DNA of 64,000 bases from Pseudomonadota bacterium. GTDB lineage: Bacteria; Pseudomonadota; Gammaproteobacteria; Xanthomonadales; Rhodanobacteraceae. This document shows positions 16,397-20,892 of this stretch, piece after piece. Every line of letters begins with the position of its first letter. The first letter of the stretch is position 1. The DNA is taken from the NCBI GenBank assembly GCA_021827205.1, contig JAKAWV010000005.1:79120-143119 (forward strand). Direction: 5' to 3'. The notes below the pieces were generated by a model. It was not told where the DNA came from. It saw only the letters and a program-made list of their open reading frames with translations, and searched no databases. Position numbers and translations under genes: made by a program.

Positions 16397-16888
16397 ATGG
16401 GCAGCGAGATCCATGAACTTCCGAATTGCGAGTGGAGCGCCGAGGATCAGCGCTGGATGCTGCACGCGCTGGAGCTGGCGCAACATGCTGACCAGCAATT
16501 AGGCGAGGTTCCGGTCGGCGCGGCGCTTATTCAAAACGGCCAACTGATTGGCGCGGGTTGCAATCGCAGCATCATCGAACATGACCCCAGCGCGCATGCC
16601 GAGATCGTGGCGCTGCGCGCCGCCGGGCAACTGCTCGGCAATTACCGATACACCGGCAGCACGCTGTACGTCACGCTGGAGCCATGCGCCATGTGTGCGA
16701 TGGCTTTGATACATGCGCGCGTCGCGCGCGTGGTGTATGCGGCGGCGGATCTCAAGACTGGTGCTGCGGGCAGCGTATTCGATACGCTGATTTCTGCGCA
16801 TCACAATCACCGCGTCGAAGTACGACAGGGCTTGCTGGCTGACGCTTCAGCAGAGCTGCTACGCGAATTCTTTCGGCGACGGCGTTGA
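16397..16888 (+). CDS. tadA: tRNA adenosine(34) deaminase
   Basis: Cytidine/deoxycytidylate deaminase zinc motifs HAE (PSAHAEIVAL) and PCAMC (TLEPCAMCAMAL). Size is about 163 aa. Confidence 0.9.
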   Translation: MGSEIHELPNCEWSAEDQRWMLHALELAQHADQQLGEVPVGAALIQNGQLIGAGCNRSIIEHDPSAHAEIVALRAAGQLLGNYRYTGSTLYVTLEPCAMCAMALIHARVARVVYAAADLKTGAAGSVFDTLISAHHNHRVEVRQGLLADASAELLREFFRRRR

Positions 16889-16922: not shown

Positions 16923-16950
16923 ATTTTACATAATATGCATATGCAAAAGT
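16923..16950. other. dif-like 28-mer (attL): chromosomal XerD-type arm + central region + element-type XerC-side arm
   Basis: ATTTTACATAA|TATGCA|TATGCAAAAGT. The reverse complement compares with E. coli dif GGTGCGCATAA-TGTATA-TTATGTTAAAT: XerD arm 10/11, central 5/6, and the CGCATA-like core is present but shifted by 1 nt. Confidence 0.6.
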
Positions 16951-17165
16951 CATGTCGCGGGCGAGTCACCGTCCAGCACTTCGATGTGCACGTCGAGACG
17001 CTGCGCTTCTAGCCACCGCACGAATGCGTCGTCCACAGTCATCGGTGAGTAGTTGTCATGGAAGACCATCGTTGTTACACCCACCTGTTCGGTACGCTGC
17101 CATAGGGCATGCGCTTCGACTACGTCTTGGTGGGTCGTGGGTGCGAGAAACCTTATACGGGCCAT
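16950..17165 (-). CDS. hypothetical 71-aa protein of the cassette
   Basis: MARIRFLAPTTHQDVVEAHALWQRTEQVGVTTMVFHDNYSPMTVDDAFVRWLEAQRLDVHIEVLDGDSPAT looks globular and uses several codons rare for this genome (ATA, AGG, CTA, GTA). Its stop overlaps the last base of the att 28-mer. An alternative ATG is at 17171. SD is weak and no family is recognised. Confidence 0.4.
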   Translation of the reverse strand: MARIRFLAPTTHQDVVEAHALWQRTEQVGVTTMVFHDNYSPMTVDDAFVRWLEAQRLDVHIEVLDGDSPAT

Positions 17166-17229
17166 GGGCATTCTCTGTAGCAGGTCTGGCGAGCGTACGG
17201 TACATCGCCAGAGGCTGCGGGAGGCAAAC

Positions 17230-18375
17230 ATGATCGCCCGGGGTCGTAAGCTGCGTCGCAACGTTGTTCCGGGCCGACGCGCCCGGCGTCTGTGGCACGT
17301 CAGCCCGGATGGCTTCGGCGAGCTGCGCCGGTCCTGTCTGCTGAGCCGCAAGGCGGCGGCCGAGTTTCTCGGGGTGAGCCTGCGCACGGTGGCCTACTGG
17401 GAGGCCGGGCGCTGCCGGGTGCCGTTGTCGGTGGTGCGGCTGCTGCGCATCGTTCGCCTGGGCGATCTCGGCGCGCTGTCGCGGGACTGGTCGGGCTGGT
17501 CCTTGCATGGCGGCGCGCTGCGCAGCCCGGAAGGCCGCGCCTTCACACCGCACGAATCGGCATGGTGGGCGCTGCTGGTGGCGCAGGCGCGCGCGTTTGT
17601 GGAGGGCCGGGCGCGGCTCGGGGGTGTGGGGGCGGCAGCCCCCGCGAGGCCGCAGGCCGTCCCGCTTCAACCCGAAGCCGGGGAAGCCGGACGGCAGGAC
17701 GCAGACGCGGCCGGGCATGGGCAGGGCGTCTTCCCGCTGAACGCTCTGGAAGGGGTGCTGCTGCCGGTTCGTAGCGGCTGGGCCGCTGTGTGGAGCGAAG
17801 GCGGGGGCGCGCGTGCGCGCCCCGCCTGCTCCACGGGGCTTGTCTCCTATTCAACAAAGGCAACGCGACATGCCGAATGTGAGCATTTTCCTAGCTTGCG
17901 CGCTGGTGGTCATGGTGGCAATCTGGGGCCACTATGGCCCCATGGAGTAGGCACCCATGCCCCCGACTTCCAAGCTCAACCTGCGTCTTCCTGTGGACTT
18001 GAAGGAACAGGCCGAGGCCTTGGCCCAGCACATGGGCTTGAGCTTGAACGCCCTGTGTGTGATGGCCCTGCGCTCGCAGGTGCCCTACCTGTCCCGCACC
18101 TACCGCCCGCCTCCTGTGGTCCCGGCCGGCCTTCAGGCCCCGACCGCCCCGCCTTCGTCGGCGCCGGCGGTCTCCAGGCGGGAGCACGTGCCCAGGGTGG
18201 CGCTGAATGCGCCCTGCCCGTGCGGCAGTGGCCAGAAGTACAAGCGGTGTCACGGCGCGCCCGGCGTGCGGTAACCGGCGCAGAGGGTGCGGCACCCGGC
18301 CAGTTCGACGGCTCACCGGGTGCCGCGGTTACAACCATAACCGGGGGCGTGGCCCCCATGGAGTTTGTAGCATGA
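17230..18375 (+). CDS. helix-turn-helix DNA-binding protein of the cassette (start well supported, 3' end unresolved)
   Basis: GGGAGG lies 5 nt before ATG 17230. [40 protein letters not shown] is followed by [29 protein letters not shown], reminiscent of small phage HTH regulators. The frame stays open to 18375, but beyond about 17640 the translation is Gly/Ala/Pro-rich noise and overlaps the clearly real gene at 17957. Confidence 0.5.
17800..17826. repeat. GC-rich hairpin GGCGGGGGCGCGC-GT-GCGCGCCCCGCC (one bulged G)
   Basis: Read directly. It lies between the HTH domain and the next gene and is followed by the only AT-richer stretch of the cassette. It could be a terminator or an origin-like structure. 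No U-tract. Confidence 0.5.
17957..18274 (+). CDS. ribbon-helix-helix-like protein fused to a C-terminal SEC-C metal-binding motif
   Basis: GGAG lies 9 nt upstream of the ATG. The N-terminus [33 protein letters not shown] is Arc/CopG/HicB-antitoxin-like. A Pro-rich linker follows, then the C-terminal [14 protein letters not shown], the SEC-C motif. Confidence 0.75.
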
Positions 18376-18776
18376 AACGGCGTGATGAGTTGGCGTCGAT
18401 CCGCTGCGTGTTGGCGGAGCAGTTGGTTTCCATCGCGGTGCAGTCCTATTACGCGGCCGGTCGCGCGATCCTCGAGGATTTCAAGGCGTCCGGGGAACCT
18501 TGGGACGTGGACGGGCAGCCTTGGGCGGATCGCTCGGTTTTCCTGTGGCAGCTGCACCACGAGATAACGCACCGGCTTAGCCTCGTGGCGGCGCGTCAGC
18601 GCCTGCGCTCGCCCGGCTCGGCGACTTCGGAACTGGGCTGGTACGAGCCGCCCGGGCGTCCTGCGTTCGATCCCGTGCCCGTTTTTTCAGGCCCGCCGGT
18701 GAACGATTTGCACCCTGCCCCTGATGCCTGCGAGTCTAGCGCGGGCGCGGCGGCGAGCGCGGGGGTGGATGCATGA
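18372..18776 (+). CDS. hypothetical 134-aa protein of the cassette
   Basis: GGAG lies 8 nt upstream of the ATG. The first ~85 aa look ordered ([69 protein letters not shown]). The stop lies 6 nt before the att core. No family recognised. Confidence 0.5.
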   Translation: MKRRDELASIRCVLAEQLVSIAVQSYYAAGRAILEDFKASGEPWDVDGQPWADRSVFLWQLHHEITHRLSLVAARQRLRSPGSATSELGWYEPPGRPAFDPVPVFSGPPVNDLHPAPDACESSAGAAASAGVDA

Positions 18777-18798
18777 CGTCCTATGCATATGCAAAAGT
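18771..18798. other. inter-copy junction = attP-like site (XerC-side arm and central region present, no XerD-type arm)
   Basis: GCATGACGTCC|TATGCA|TATGCAAAAGT. The right 17 nt are identical to attL. The left 11 nt match the chromosomal arm ATTTTACATAA at only 4/11. Confidence 0.6.
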
Positions 18799-19013
18799 CA
18801 TGTCGCGGGCGAGTCACCGTCCAGCACTTCGATGTGCACGTCGAGACGCTGCGCTTCTAGCCACCGCACGAATGCGTCGTCCACAGTCATCGGTGAGTAG
18901 TTGTCATGGAAGACCATCGTTGTTACACCCACCTGTTCGGTACGCTGCCATAGGGCATGCGCTTCGACTACGTCTTGGTGGGTCGTGGGTGCGAGAAACC
19001 TTATACGGGCCAT
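18798..19013 (-). CDS. hypothetical 71-aa protein (copy 2)
   Basis: Identical to 16950..17165 at +1848. Confidence 0.4.
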   Translation of the reverse strand: MARIRFLAPTTHQDVVEAHALWQRTEQVGVTTMVFHDNYSPMTVDDAFVRWLEAQRLDVHIEVLDGDSPAT

Positions 19014-19077
19014 GGGCATTCTCTGTAGCAGGTCTGGCGAGCGTACGGTACATCGCCAGAGGCTGCGGGAGGCAAAC

Positions 19078-20223
19078 ATGATCGCCCGGGGTCGTAAGCT
19101 GCGTCGCAACGTTGTTCCGGGCCGACGCGCCCGGCGTCTGTGGCACGTCAGCCCGGATGGCTTCGGCGAGCTGCGCCGGTCCTGTCTGCTGAGCCGCAAG
19201 GCGGCGGCCGAGTTTCTCGGGGTGAGCCTGCGCACGGTGGCCTACTGGGAGGCCGGGCGCTGCCGGGTGCCGTTGTCGGTGGTGCGGCTGCTGCGCATCG
19301 TTCGCCTGGGCGATCTCGGCGCGCTGTCGCGGGACTGGTCGGGCTGGTCCTTGCATGGCGGCGCGCTGCGCAGCCCGGAAGGCCGCGCCTTCACACCGCA
19401 CGAATCGGCATGGTGGGCGCTGCTGGTGGCGCAGGCGCGCGCGTTTGTGGAGGGCCGGGCGCGGCTCGGGGGTGTGGGGGCGGCAGCCCCCGCGAGGCCG
19501 CAGGCCGTCCCGCTTCAACCCGAAGCCGGGGAAGCCGGACGGCAGGACGCAGACGCGGCCGGGCATGGGCAGGGCGTCTTCCCGCTGAACGCTCTGGAAG
19601 GGGTGCTGCTGCCGGTTCGTAGCGGCTGGGCCGCTGTGTGGAGCGAAGGCGGGGGCGCGCGTGCGCGCCCCGCCTGCTCCACGGGGCTTGTCTCCTATTC
19701 AACAAAGGCAACGCGACATGCCGAATGTGAGCATTTTCCTAGCTTGCGCGCTGGTGGTCATGGTGGCAATCTGGGGCCACTATGGCCCCATGGAGTAGGC
19801 ACCCATGCCCCCGACTTCCAAGCTCAACCTGCGTCTTCCTGTGGACTTGAAGGAACAGGCCGAGGCCTTGGCCCAGCACATGGGCTTGAGCTTGAACGCC
19901 CTGTGTGTGATGGCCCTGCGCTCGCAGGTGCCCTACCTGTCCCGCACCTACCGCCCGCCTCCTGTGGTCCCGGCCGGCCTTCAGGCCCCGACCGCCCCGC
20001 CTTCGTCGGCGCCGGCGGTCTCCAGGCGGGAGCACGTGCCCAGGGTGGCGCTGAATGCGCCCTGCCCGTGCGGCAGTGGCCAGAAGTACAAGCGGTGTCA
20101 CGGCGCGCCCGGCGTGCGGTAACCGGCGCAGAGGGTGCGGCACCCGGCCAGTTCGACGGCTCACCGGGTGCCGCGGTTACAACCATAACCGGGGGCGTGG
20201 CCCCCATGGAGTTTGTAGCATGA
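19078..20223 (+). CDS. HTH DNA-binding protein (copy 2; 3' end unresolved)
   Basis: Identical to 17230..18375 at +1848. Confidence 0.5.
19805..20122 (+). CDS. RHH-like / SEC-C motif protein (copy 2)
   Basis: Identical to 17957..18274 at +1848. Confidence 0.75.
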
Positions 20224-20624
20224 AACGGCGTGATGAGTTGGCGTCGATCCGCTGCGTGTTGGCGGAGCAGTTGGTTTCCATCGCGGTGCAGTCCTATTAC
20301 GCGGCCGGTCGCGCGATCCTCGAGGATTTCAAGGCGTCCGGGGAACCTTGGGACGTGGACGGGCAGCCTTGGGCGGATCGCTCGGTTTTCCTGTGGCAGC
20401 TGCACCACGAGATAACGCACCGGCTTAGCCTCGTGGCGGCGCGTCAGCGCCTGCGCTCGCCCGGCTCGGCGACTTCGGAACTGGGCTGGTACGAGCCGCC
20501 CGGGCGTCCTGCGTTCGATCCCGTGCCCGTTTTTTCAGGCCCGCCGGTGAACGATTTGCACCCTGCCCCTGATGCCTGCGAGTCTAGCGCGGGCGCGGCG
20601 GCGAGCGCGGGGGTGGATGCATGA
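20220..20624 (+). CDS. hypothetical 134-aa protein (copy 2)
   Basis: Identical to 18372..18776 at +1848. Confidence 0.5.
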
Positions 20625-20646
20625 CGTCCTATGCATATGCGAAAGT
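20619..20646. other. right junction (attR): element-type left arm + central region + chromosomal XerC-side arm
   Basis: GCATGACGTCC|TATGCA|TATGCGAAAGT. It differs from the other two sites by G instead of A at 20641, and the flank then diverges (GGCGGGG vs CATGTCG). Confidence 0.6.
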
Positions 20647-20715
20647 GGCGGGGCTGGCACGGCGCGTGCTTGCATGGCTGCGAGACTTAACAAGCTCAGC
20701 TCTTGTCTGTCGGCG

Positions 20716-20766: not shown

Positions 20767-20892
20767 ATGAAAGTACTGTCCTCGCTGAAGTCTGCCAAGG
20801 CGCGTCATCGCGATTGCAAGATCGTGCGTCGTCGCGGCAAGGTCTTCGTGATCTGCAAGAGCAACCCGCGTTTCAAGGCACGGCAGCGCTAA
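20767..20892 (+). CDS. rpmJ: 50S ribosomal protein L36, Cys-poor (type B, YkgO-like) paralogue
   Basis: 41 aa: [42 protein letters not shown]36 fold signature without the full CxxC...C...H zinc ligands. GGAG SD is present. Confidence 0.85.

Follow-up and report, generated by a model that had tools for sequence, protein, structure and literature searches.

We identified a 1,848-bp element, present as 2 tandem copies, at the chromosome-dimer-resolution site (dif) of a Metallibacterium-like Rhodanobacteraceae bacterium, within a 64-kb stretch of DNA (contig JAKAWV010000005.1, positions 79,120 to 143,119; hereafter the window, in whose numbering coordinates without a locus number are given). The element is probably a satellite of the TLCφ type, dependent on the Xer activation factor XafT and without a replication initiator (Rep) gene. 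[quoted passage not shown]

Direct comparison of the 2 halves of the array gave 0 mismatches over 1,848 nt between 16935-18782 and 18783-20630, and the exact head-to-tail duplication described in a first-pass annotation of this DNA therefore holds. The core ATGCATATGC, which had been said to bound and divide the array, occurs at 3 sites (16935, 18783, and 20631), all on the + strand, and nowhere else in the window; none was found there on the minus strand. The stretch common to the junctions is the 11-nt TATGCATATGC (from 16934), or 17 nt if 1 A/G difference is tolerated, and this difference is distributed across the arms with A at the left and middle junctions and G at the right. The sequences of all 3 junctions had been read correctly. 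Compared with dif, the middle junction matches at 6/6 positions in the centre and 10/11 in the XerC-side arm but at 4/11 in the XerD position, which upholds its reading as an attP-like site without a XerD-type arm; a dif-identical centre next to a degenerate XerD arm is the arrangement found in TLCφ (PMC6744903). Half sites derived from dif bound each unit, both att sites are precise, and the crossover lies inside or beside the 6-bp central region. The right junction is identical in 3 loci with a single copy (L001, L076, and L077). The G+C content of the unit is 68%, compared with 65% for the window.

The locus, called dif-like in the first-pass annotation, is the real chromosome-dimer-resolution site, because the XerD-type arm at 16923 is the only one in the 64 kb and the polarity of FtsK-orienting polar sequences (KOPS) switches exactly here. 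Outside the cassette, the KOPS octamer GGGNAGGG was found twice on the + strand and never on the minus strand to the left (11141 and 14669), and never on the + strand and 6 times on the minus strand to the right (24865 to 52601). At homologous sites in 25 related loci, the counts were 33 (+) and 0 (−) on the left and 1 (+) and 17 (−) on the right, and the 2 complete chromosomes from Dyella have their homologous loci at 44-46% of total length. GC skew within the window is positive to ~30 kb and then mixed, and KOPS polarity was relied on instead. The boundary between the centre and the XerC arm is short of one T relative to the canonical dif of the family (TATACA-TATGCG vs TATACA-TTATGCG). The XerC arm placed 1 nt closer than usual, pointed out earlier for this site, is thus common to the whole lineage, and the spacing is shared by dif, mini-IMEX attP, and inovirus attR within the Metallibacterium-like group.

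The gene orfB links the element to Xer recombination. Its product matched Pfam DUF3653 (PF12375) with 28.8 bits (cut-off 22.4), together with the helix-turn-helix (HTH) families HTH_31/HTH_3, and NCBIfam NF040522 (VC1465_fam) with 88 bits (curated cut-off 70), and homologues are named "VC1465 family Xer recombination activation factor" in public sources. VC1465, the XafT of the Vibrio cholerae satellite TLCφ, binds XerD and triggers complete, FtsK-independent, XerD-first recombination for both integration and excision, and the XerD arm of the TLCφ attP binds XerD poorly (PMC6744903). A 2026 bioRxiv preprint was also drawn on for the biology of XafT. DUF3653 genes adjoining dif were reported from many γ- and β-proteobacteria in 2019 (PMC6744903). 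Judged by its family, the orfB product would be a XerD activator of the XafT type. The earlier view of an integrase-less element exploiting Xer thus stands as regards the exploitation of Xer, but not as regards the absence of integration functions. A GGAGG ribosome-binding site precedes the orfB ATG, G+C at third codon positions (GC3) supports coding to ~17800, and the protein carries the motif W(S/A)GW.L..G.L.SPEG, related to the WAGFxF of the phage protein PSB15. The orfB frame remains open to 18375 (381 aa), crossing orfC in another frame, because of the high GC3 of orfC, and ends on the start of orfD. Gene callers give this 381-aa open reading frame (ORF) and miss orfC (L001 and L076). A PDB sequence search returned generic HTH antitoxins only and no XafT-family structure, and tblastn of XafT against deposited phages returned nothing at E <= 1e-3.

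The unit also carries an inovirus origin (ori)-like module, in which a long GC hairpin is followed by the consensus GGGCTTGTC-N8-10-AACAA(G/A)(T/G)GG. By blastn, window positions 17790-17857 were 83% identical over 70 nt (E = 2e-14) to an inovirus prophage at the same dif in L036, and also matched the inovirus of L071; the miniature element of L071 was 89% identical over 72 nt to that inovirus. These prophages carry Coat_B and DUF2523 (L036) or Rep, pIII-like, DUF2523, and Zot genes (L071/L069), and their Rep gene contains the module at about codons 75-105. Identity between the L071 Rep and pII of φLf is 42%, and the alignment begins exactly at the motif, which encodes GLV.... The same arrangement was found in φLf-UK (MH206184) at nt 280-335, as GGCCAGCGCG-cag-CGCGCTGGCC followed by GGGCTTGTCCATTACAAAACAAGTG, within the φLf nt 245-365 fragment used as "ori and PS" in plasmid pORIPS (bioRxiv 10.1101/2024.03.19.585677). 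In a ten-sequence alignment, compensatory changes were identified at 8/19 stem pairs, the hairpin sequence varying while pairing is kept, and the module is present in ~20 XafT elements, invariably on the XafT-sense strand. Relatives of 2.0-2.4 kb retain Rep around the module (L007, L008, L009, L011, L018, and L020); in units of the window type the body of Rep is gone, orfC and orfD take its place, and a relic Rep peptide of 10 aa persists in the open orfB frame. On this sequence and structural homology to φLf and the resident inoviruses, the module is a candidate carrier of a helper's plus-strand origin. The unit indeed has no Rep gene, as was noted at first, but the ori-like cis module in it had been missed.

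Rep, single-stranded DNA (ssDNA)-binding, coat, and Zot/pI morphogenesis genes are all absent from the unit, which is not a complete inovirus, and the window as a whole has no Rep, Zot, or coat gene. Neither tblastn, with pII of φLf and the Rep of L071 as queries, nor Pfam/PHROGs searches returned a Rep homologue from the unit or the window. Inovirus genes do occur in neighboring elements of L036, L071, L069, and L067.

A second stretch conserved at the DNA level, block 1, lies near the end of the conserved part of orfB. Its 14-mer GGGGGTGTGGGGGC and the GCCCCC beyond the loop are invariant in 15 elements though their XafT proteins are only 45-100% identical, and the window holds 2 occurrences of the 14-mer where 0.01 would be expected. 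Block 1 lies outside any ORF in L013 (L013:6362), survives in decayed remnants, and is present in 21 unrelated IMG/VR viral contigs, with 3 tandem copies in L065 (L065:2127). Its folding z-score is −2.9, with an invariant first stem and 1 of 14 pairs covarying, and Rfam gave no match beyond sub-threshold noise. Candidate roles are those of packaging signal, minus-strand origin, or terminator.

A scan for relatives of orfB, with one genome per species, yielded 32 loci, all in Rhodanobacteraceae or Lysobacterales. About 22 of the 32 have a full 28-bp dif (ATTT[TG]ACATAA-TATACA-TTATGCG....) 60-130 bp upstream of the XafT gene, with the XerC arm always facing the gene, and in ~12 loci, from genomes and metagenomes, a second site downstream has an identical centre and XerC arm next to unrelated sequence in the XerD position. 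The first-pass annotation had suggested looking for the cassette at other dif sites, and relatives were indeed found at ~30 loci, always in the same position and orientation, with unit types recurring across genera. The window element is therefore one case of a recurrent, discrete class of elements. Tandem pairs were identified in the finished chromosome of Dyella marensis CS5-B2 (1821/1821 aligned positions identical, with a 3-nt difference in length) and in Rhodanobacter sp. T12-5 (period 1485, 1478/1485 identical). A Zot homologue lies just past the tandem pair in Dyella marensis (L013:10155-10691), and an inovirus is thus probably next in the same array.

Mixed arrays were found in L071 (2927-10540) and L069, in the order dif, 6.0-kb inovirus, degenerate-arm site, 1552-bp miniature element, and degenerate-arm site, paralleling the CTXφ/TLCφ arrays of V. 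cholerae. The inovirus there encodes Rep, pIII-like, DUF2523, Zot, and DUF192 proteins and a 103-aa DUF3653-like ORF beside dif; the idea that it relies on the XafT of the miniature element was rejected, because it has this ORF of its own. In the smallest unit, of 992 bp (L041:3265-4284), a XafT homologue (303 aa) is the sole content between a dif-like site and a degenerate-arm site; no ori motif was found in this unit, and it may be a minimal self-integrating form or a decayed one. Blastn with the unit returned nothing among deposited phages and only a SEC-C motif match among plasmids, and an exact search of JGI metagenomes for the middle junction gave 0 hits. Scanning IMG/VR for this XafT clade identified a single 8.2-kb contig with attP and XafT at its end and ORFs matching φLf pII and the L071 Rep, which is probably an inovirus.

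Three MEGAHIT k141 assemblies of different samples (ENA) each contained a contig of 1989 bp, that is 1848 + 141 (L080, L081, and L082). These contigs have a 141-nt terminal overlap, are exact substrings of the window tandem, and start at offsets 837, 1717, and 777; with 3 different offsets, they represent closed cycles, and the junction that closes the cycle contigs L080-L083 is the middle one. From our understanding of how assemblers prune graphs, the cycles, with their arbitrary start points, suggest that copies of the junction greatly outnumber the chromosomal flanks, whether they come from circles or from long arrays. More generally, contigs of 1.5-2.1 kb with family members are common, and assemblies are systematically broken at the terminus by such elements. 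The host of L001 has a 7.7-kb left flank 99.3% identical to that of the window and a single copy of exactly 1848 bp. Between L001:7719-9594 and window 16923-18798, identity is 100% over the left ~1000 bp (orfA, XafT, and ori module) and ~85% over the right ~850 bp (orfC and orfD), with a breakpoint near 17920-17950 and no indel or change in length. This mosaic suggests exchange of modules between co-resident elements. In L044, where the left flank is 97.6% identical, a different unit of 1588 bp is present.

We propose the following mechanism. A double-stranded circle would pair its attP with dif, and the XafT homologue would activate XerD independently of FtsK, so that the initial strand exchange is made by XerD and the resulting junction is resolved by XerC. 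The left junction would stay a complete dif with the XerC-side arm of the element and would be the preferred target for the next integration; repeated use of this left site would explain why the units stand head to tail and why the arms read A-A-G. XafT would also allow excision. The Rep of a helper inovirus would act at 17791-17866 and amplify the element by rolling circle, and helper virions might be used for transfer, making the Rep-less satellite a natural phagemid. We consider dependence on a helper most likely, since genes for Rep and coat are missing from the element but the ori-like module has been kept.

A fuller proposal, which is possible though on balance doubtful, is that circles of 1.5-1.9 kb, lacking Rep and coat genes, are natural phagemids that combine XafT and a TLC-type attP, serving lysogeny at dif, with the origin, and perhaps with block 1 as packaging signal, of co-resident φLf-like inoviruses, and that the lineage has a dif whose XerC-side arm lies 1 bp nearer than in any characterized Xer site, with a spacing imposed or maintained by IMEXs. 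If true, such elements would parasitize both the dimer-resolution machinery of the host and a helper phage, and the 992-bp, XafT-only element of L041 would be a minimal self-integrating unit.

Table. Features of the tandem array and its surroundings in the window, and unit lengths in related loci
Feature	Position or length	Strand	Remarks
Left junction (attL), working dif-like site	16923-16950		ATTTTACATAA + TATGCA + TATGCAAAAGT
attL, XerD arm	16923-16933		ATTTTACATAA
attL, centre	16934-16939		TATGCA
attL, XerC-side arm	16940-16950		TATGCAAAAGT; "A" variant, element-type
Middle junction, attP of the circular form	18771-18798		degenerate XerD-position arm GCATGACGTCC + TATGCA + XerC-side arm TATGCAAAAGT
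Right junction (attR)	20619-20646		GCATGACGTCC + TATGCA + TATGCGAAAGT ("G" arm)
Copy 1 of the 1848-bp element	16935-18782	+	phase as chosen in the first-pass annotation
Copy 2 of the 1848-bp element	18783-20630	+	features of copy 1 shifted by +1848
orfB, XafT family (HTH_XRE + DUF3653)	17230-17700 (copy 2: 19078-19548)	+	conserved part, ~aa 1-157
Inovirus ori-like module	17791-17866 (copy 2: 19639-19714)	+	GC hairpin with 20-bp stem, 17791-17833, then GGGCTTGTCTCCTATTCAACAAAGGCAACGC, 17836-17866
Block 1	17620-17690 (copy 2: 19468-19538)	+	invariant GGGGGTGTGGGGGC, variable loop, GCCCCC, second small palindrome
orfA	16950-17171 (copy 2: 18798-19019)	-	71-73 aa; divergent from XafT gene; stop abuts XerC-side arm
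Small hydrophobic ORF	17870-17950 (copy 2: 19718-19798)	+	26 aa; directly after ori-like motif
orfC	17957-18274 (copy 2: 19805-20122)	+	105 aa; N-terminal ribbon-helix-helix (HicB/Arc/CopG-like), C-terminal SEC-C zinc motif
orfD	18372-18776 (copy 2: 20220-20624)	+	134 aa; start overlaps stop of long orfB frame (ATGA)
tadA (tRNA adenosine deaminase), left chromosomal flank	16397-16888	+	Pfam
L36 paralogue (rpmJ-like), right chromosomal flank	20767-20892	+	Pfam Ribosomal_L36, 2.9e-18
Relic of older IMEX end	20647-20700	+	homologous to 5' end of PSB15-like (DUF3653) gene abutting dif in L071 inovirus
1-bp-short sites	16923-16950, 18771-18798, 20619-20646; L040:4469, L041:3265, L044:128, L045:152, L069, L071, L073, L076		
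Unit, L041	992 bp		
Unit, L002	1558 bp		
Unit, L045	1566 bp		
Unit, L004	1587 bp		
Unit, L044	1588 bp		
Unit, L005	1651 bp		
Unit, L013	1822 bp		
Unit, window and L001	1848 bp		
Unit, L018	2011 bp		
Unit, L020	2248 bp		
Unit, L011	2345 bp		
Unit, L009	2380 bp		
Unit, L008	2398 bp		

Several points weigh against the reading as a XafT-dependent satellite of a helper phage. A DUF3653 domain alone is no proof of Xer activation, because the DUF3653 protein PSB15 of φLf binds packaging-signal DNA through its WAGFxF motif and is dispensable for integration (bioRxiv 10.1101/2024.03.19.585677). The ori-like module could be a nonfunctional relic of the deleted Rep gene, no packaging signal was identified in the element, and with no inovirus gene in the 64-kb window, no helper is visible there. 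The cycle contigs fit long tandem arrays equally well, and the two-copy state could be mis-assembled. Aligning the arms on CGCATA gives a centre of 5 bp, and central regions of Xer sites are quoted as 6-8 bp (PMC6744903); the short spacing can be read as a centre of 5 bp or as a 1-nt shift of the XerC arm, and KOPS still mark such sites as real dif.

The alternative that survives best, though we consider it unlikely, is a self-sufficient mini-IMEX and not a phage satellite, in which XafT and XerCD would provide integration and excision, no helper would replicate or package the element, and the ori module would be an inert relic. Spread would then occur by transformation, by hitch-hiking on other routes, or vertically with occasional exchange. 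The window without helper genes, the failure to find a packaging signal, and the L041 unit with XafT only and no ori motif all agree with it, as does the finding that TLCφ integration requires only attP and ~1 kb encoding XafT (PMC6744903). However, a covarying hairpin and an invariant motif in ~20 Rep-less or Rep-bearing elements argue for selection on a cis element and not for decay, elements stand in arrays with inoviruses carrying the same module, and the isolated cycle contigs suggest a copy number well above that of the flanks, as far as assembler behavior can be read in this way.

It is rather improbable that the 2 copies are an artefact of assembly, formed from one copy plus reads of the circle or from a mis-resolved graph loop. 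The near-identical hosts L076 and L077 were assembled with a single integrated copy, and perfect repeats of 1.85 kb are not countable in short-read graphs, but short-read assemblers usually collapse such repeats and do not expand them. The middle junction is, moreover, present in several independent assemblies, and a tandem pair stands in a finished Dyella genome; an artefact would alter the copy number only, not the nature of the element.

The history of the locus bears on a third alternative. The 28-mer ATTTTACATAATATGCATATGCGAAAGT, predicted as the empty site, exists verbatim beside tadA in L040 (on an 866-kb contig) and as the left junction of L044, but L040 offers no pristine empty site, since the 28-mer is followed there by a truncated XafT (aa 2-128) and marks a decayed element, not a virgin site. 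The synteny of tadA and dif extends to L002, L010, L018, L020, L022-L024, L040, and L041, and a protein identical to the L36 paralogue of the window flanks dif, IMEXs, or inovirus in L030, L036, L040, and L041. The sequence right of site 3 in L071 and the 103-aa ORF of L071 both encode ...GTALAC.APRTDGGSM, and the window has a matching 14-residue stretch. A reading of 20645-20682 as a XafT remnant (76% match) was dropped after the L071 comparison, which makes it a relic of the end of a PSB15-like phage gene. Because this phage relic follows the right junction, the G-type XerC arm there probably derives from an earlier IMEX itself, much as TLCφ rewrites difI; the arm taken as chromosomal by the first-pass annotation had been read correctly in sequence but probably not in origin. 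Between dif and the L36 gene lies a graveyard of IMEX relics (L030:1-400, L036:4394-4900, L040:4497-4900, and window 20647-20700), in which XafT genes cut short, a gene resembling orfA, and part of a phage PSB15-like gene are found.

Such XafT and phage-end remnants at the locus (L030, L036, L040, and the window), and the portability between phages of a lysogeny module composed of XafT, repressor, and attP (PMC12715192), would suit an immobile decay product, namely the lysogeny module of an inovirus left after deletion and duplicated by unequal sister-chromatid exchange between half sites. We regard this as very unlikely: both att sites are precise, the unit was recovered as a closed cycle in 3 assemblies, in closely related hosts the unit is a different one, or a mosaic whose length is unchanged, the same unit types are met in more than one genus, and 7 differences between the tandem copies of L016 accord with separate integrations. 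Equally hard to sustain is a XerC-first pathway of the CTXφ/VGJφ type, with a pseudo-Holliday junction resolved by replication and orfB acting only as a regulator or PSB15-like packaging-signal binder, for although PSB15 is dispensable for φLf integration (bioRxiv 10.1101/2024.03.19.585677) and XafV-type factors stimulate XerC-first reactions (2026 bioRxiv preprint), the attP consists of one duplex site, lacks an inverted partner, and has a core never on the minus strand, and hence is not CTX-type, its dif-identical centre (6/6) allows both exchanges and its degenerate XerD arm is the TLC configuration (PMC6744903), and orfB has the XafT-type HTH+DUF3653 fusion and passes the VC1465 family cut-off.

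Besides orfB, the element carries 4 further genes, coding support being drawn from GC3 and ORF lists, which gave 5 genes per unit. For orfA, no family match was found in Pfam, PHROG, NCBIfam, or PADLOC, and only one protein cluster at 90% identity is known; weak homologues (33-36%) occupy the equivalent position in L036 and L073. The 26-aa ORF shares the frame of orfC, with a TAG between the two, has a GC3 of 0.75-0.85, and is kept at 68-100% amino acid identity in L001, L045, L068, L069, L071, and L073; it may encode a small membrane peptide, and its size recalls the inovirus pVII/pIX proteins. The product of orfC matched Pfam SEC-C (9e-10) and HicB (1.6e-4) and, in PHROG, Arc-like repressor and ParG-like families, its gene has a GC3 of 0.85-0.95, and homologues were identified in 17 related loci. 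It is probably a DNA-binding regulator of the element, judging from these profile matches, and a role as repressor or immunity determinant is plausible by analogy, the gene sitting where the units of the window and of L001 diverge in sequence; the heteroimmunity determined by rstR in CTXφ is a suggested analogue. No family match was found for orfD, for which only 14 protein clusters exist and whose stop lies 5 nt ahead of the central region of the middle junction; a 100%-identical cluster annotated "hypothetical protein [Metallibacterium sp.]" names the host lineage. PADLOC returned SEC-C-motif hits only and no defence system, and a promoter and terminator scan of the unit was uninformative.

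The elements matter in several respects. XafT-type IMEXs are known mainly from V. cholerae, where they shape the cholera-toxin arrays, and the same logic is found here at ~1-2 kb in environmental Rhodanobacteraceae. The combination of attP, XafT, and origin motif offers a compact substrate from nature on which XerD activation without FtsK can be studied, the graded series from inovirus through XafT+Rep satellite and Rep-less satellite to XafT only documents phage-satellite reduction, and a dif shorter by 1 bp across a lineage tests the current rules of Xer site geometry. Such elements also explain collapsed or cyclic contigs of 1.5-2 kb, broken assemblies of the terminus, and mis-annotation, as with the 381-aa ORF that swallows orfC.

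We compared the element with known systems that exploit Xer or inoviruses. With TLCφ and TLCφ-like IMEXs (PMC6744903; PMC9226527), it shares duplex integration at dif (on the mechanism proposed here), an attP with a degenerate XerD arm, an HTH+DUF3653 activation factor beside attP, arrays with inoviruses, and a rewritten XerC arm of the resident dif. It differs from TLCφ in its size of ~1.85 kb, in having an ori-like cis module only and no Cri/Rep, in its cargo of a ribbon-helix-helix-SEC-C protein, orfA, and orfD, in a dif that is 1 bp short on the XerC side, in its host, a Rhodanobacteraceae bacterium of acid environments, and in a XafT homologue whose function is predicted. TLCφ has a size of roughly 5 kb. 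The element had been described at first as much smaller than known IMEX phages; the small size stands, but the novelty is less than was assumed, TLCφ-like DUF3653 IMEXs at dif having been known as widespread since 2019. No Rep-less XafT elements of 1-2 kb are described in the literature searched, and the supplementary tree of the 2019 paper, which lay outside that search, may list some loci.

Like the φLf/Cf-type Lophivirus phages of Xanthomonas, the element would integrate at dif by XerCD; their gII holds a GC hairpin followed by GGGCTTGTC…AACAAGTG, corresponding to the module at window 17791-17866, and beside their attP lie genes for PSB15, a DUF3653 protein, and for an HTH protein of the XRE type. 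In contrast, these are complete 6-kb phages that have genes for Rep, ssDNA-binding, coat, and Zot proteins, their HTH and DUF3653 domains belong to separate proteins, and PSB15, a binder of the packaging signal, can be dispensed with for integration. RS1 of CTXφ is a small (~3 kb) inovirus satellite that forms tandem arrays at dif and needs a helper for morphogenesis, and the present element resembles it as a probable small inovirus satellite in tandem at dif; unlike it, however, RS1 encodes RstA (Rep), RstB, RstR, and RstC but no Xaf protein and uses a CTX-type folded ssDNA attP with XerC-only exchange. The 2 inverted dif-like sites of a CTXφ-type attP, folded as ssDNA, were not found, the core occurring on the + strand only and once per unit.

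Ff miniphages and laboratory phagemids, with an origin (and packaging signal) in cis and Rep and coat from a helper, have the lifestyle that we infer here, but they are laboratory or defective derivatives that lack both integration and a Xer activation factor. Acinetobacter pdif modules are likewise kb-sized cassettes bounded by XerC/XerD sites and without a recombinase of their own, but their sites are inverted, full, and on plasmids, whereas those of the element are direct and partial, with a XerD arm at the left site only, and the element lies at the chromosomal dif and has a Xaf gene. Set beside these systems, the element brings a minimal system found in nature and an unusual geometry of dif, not a new principle.

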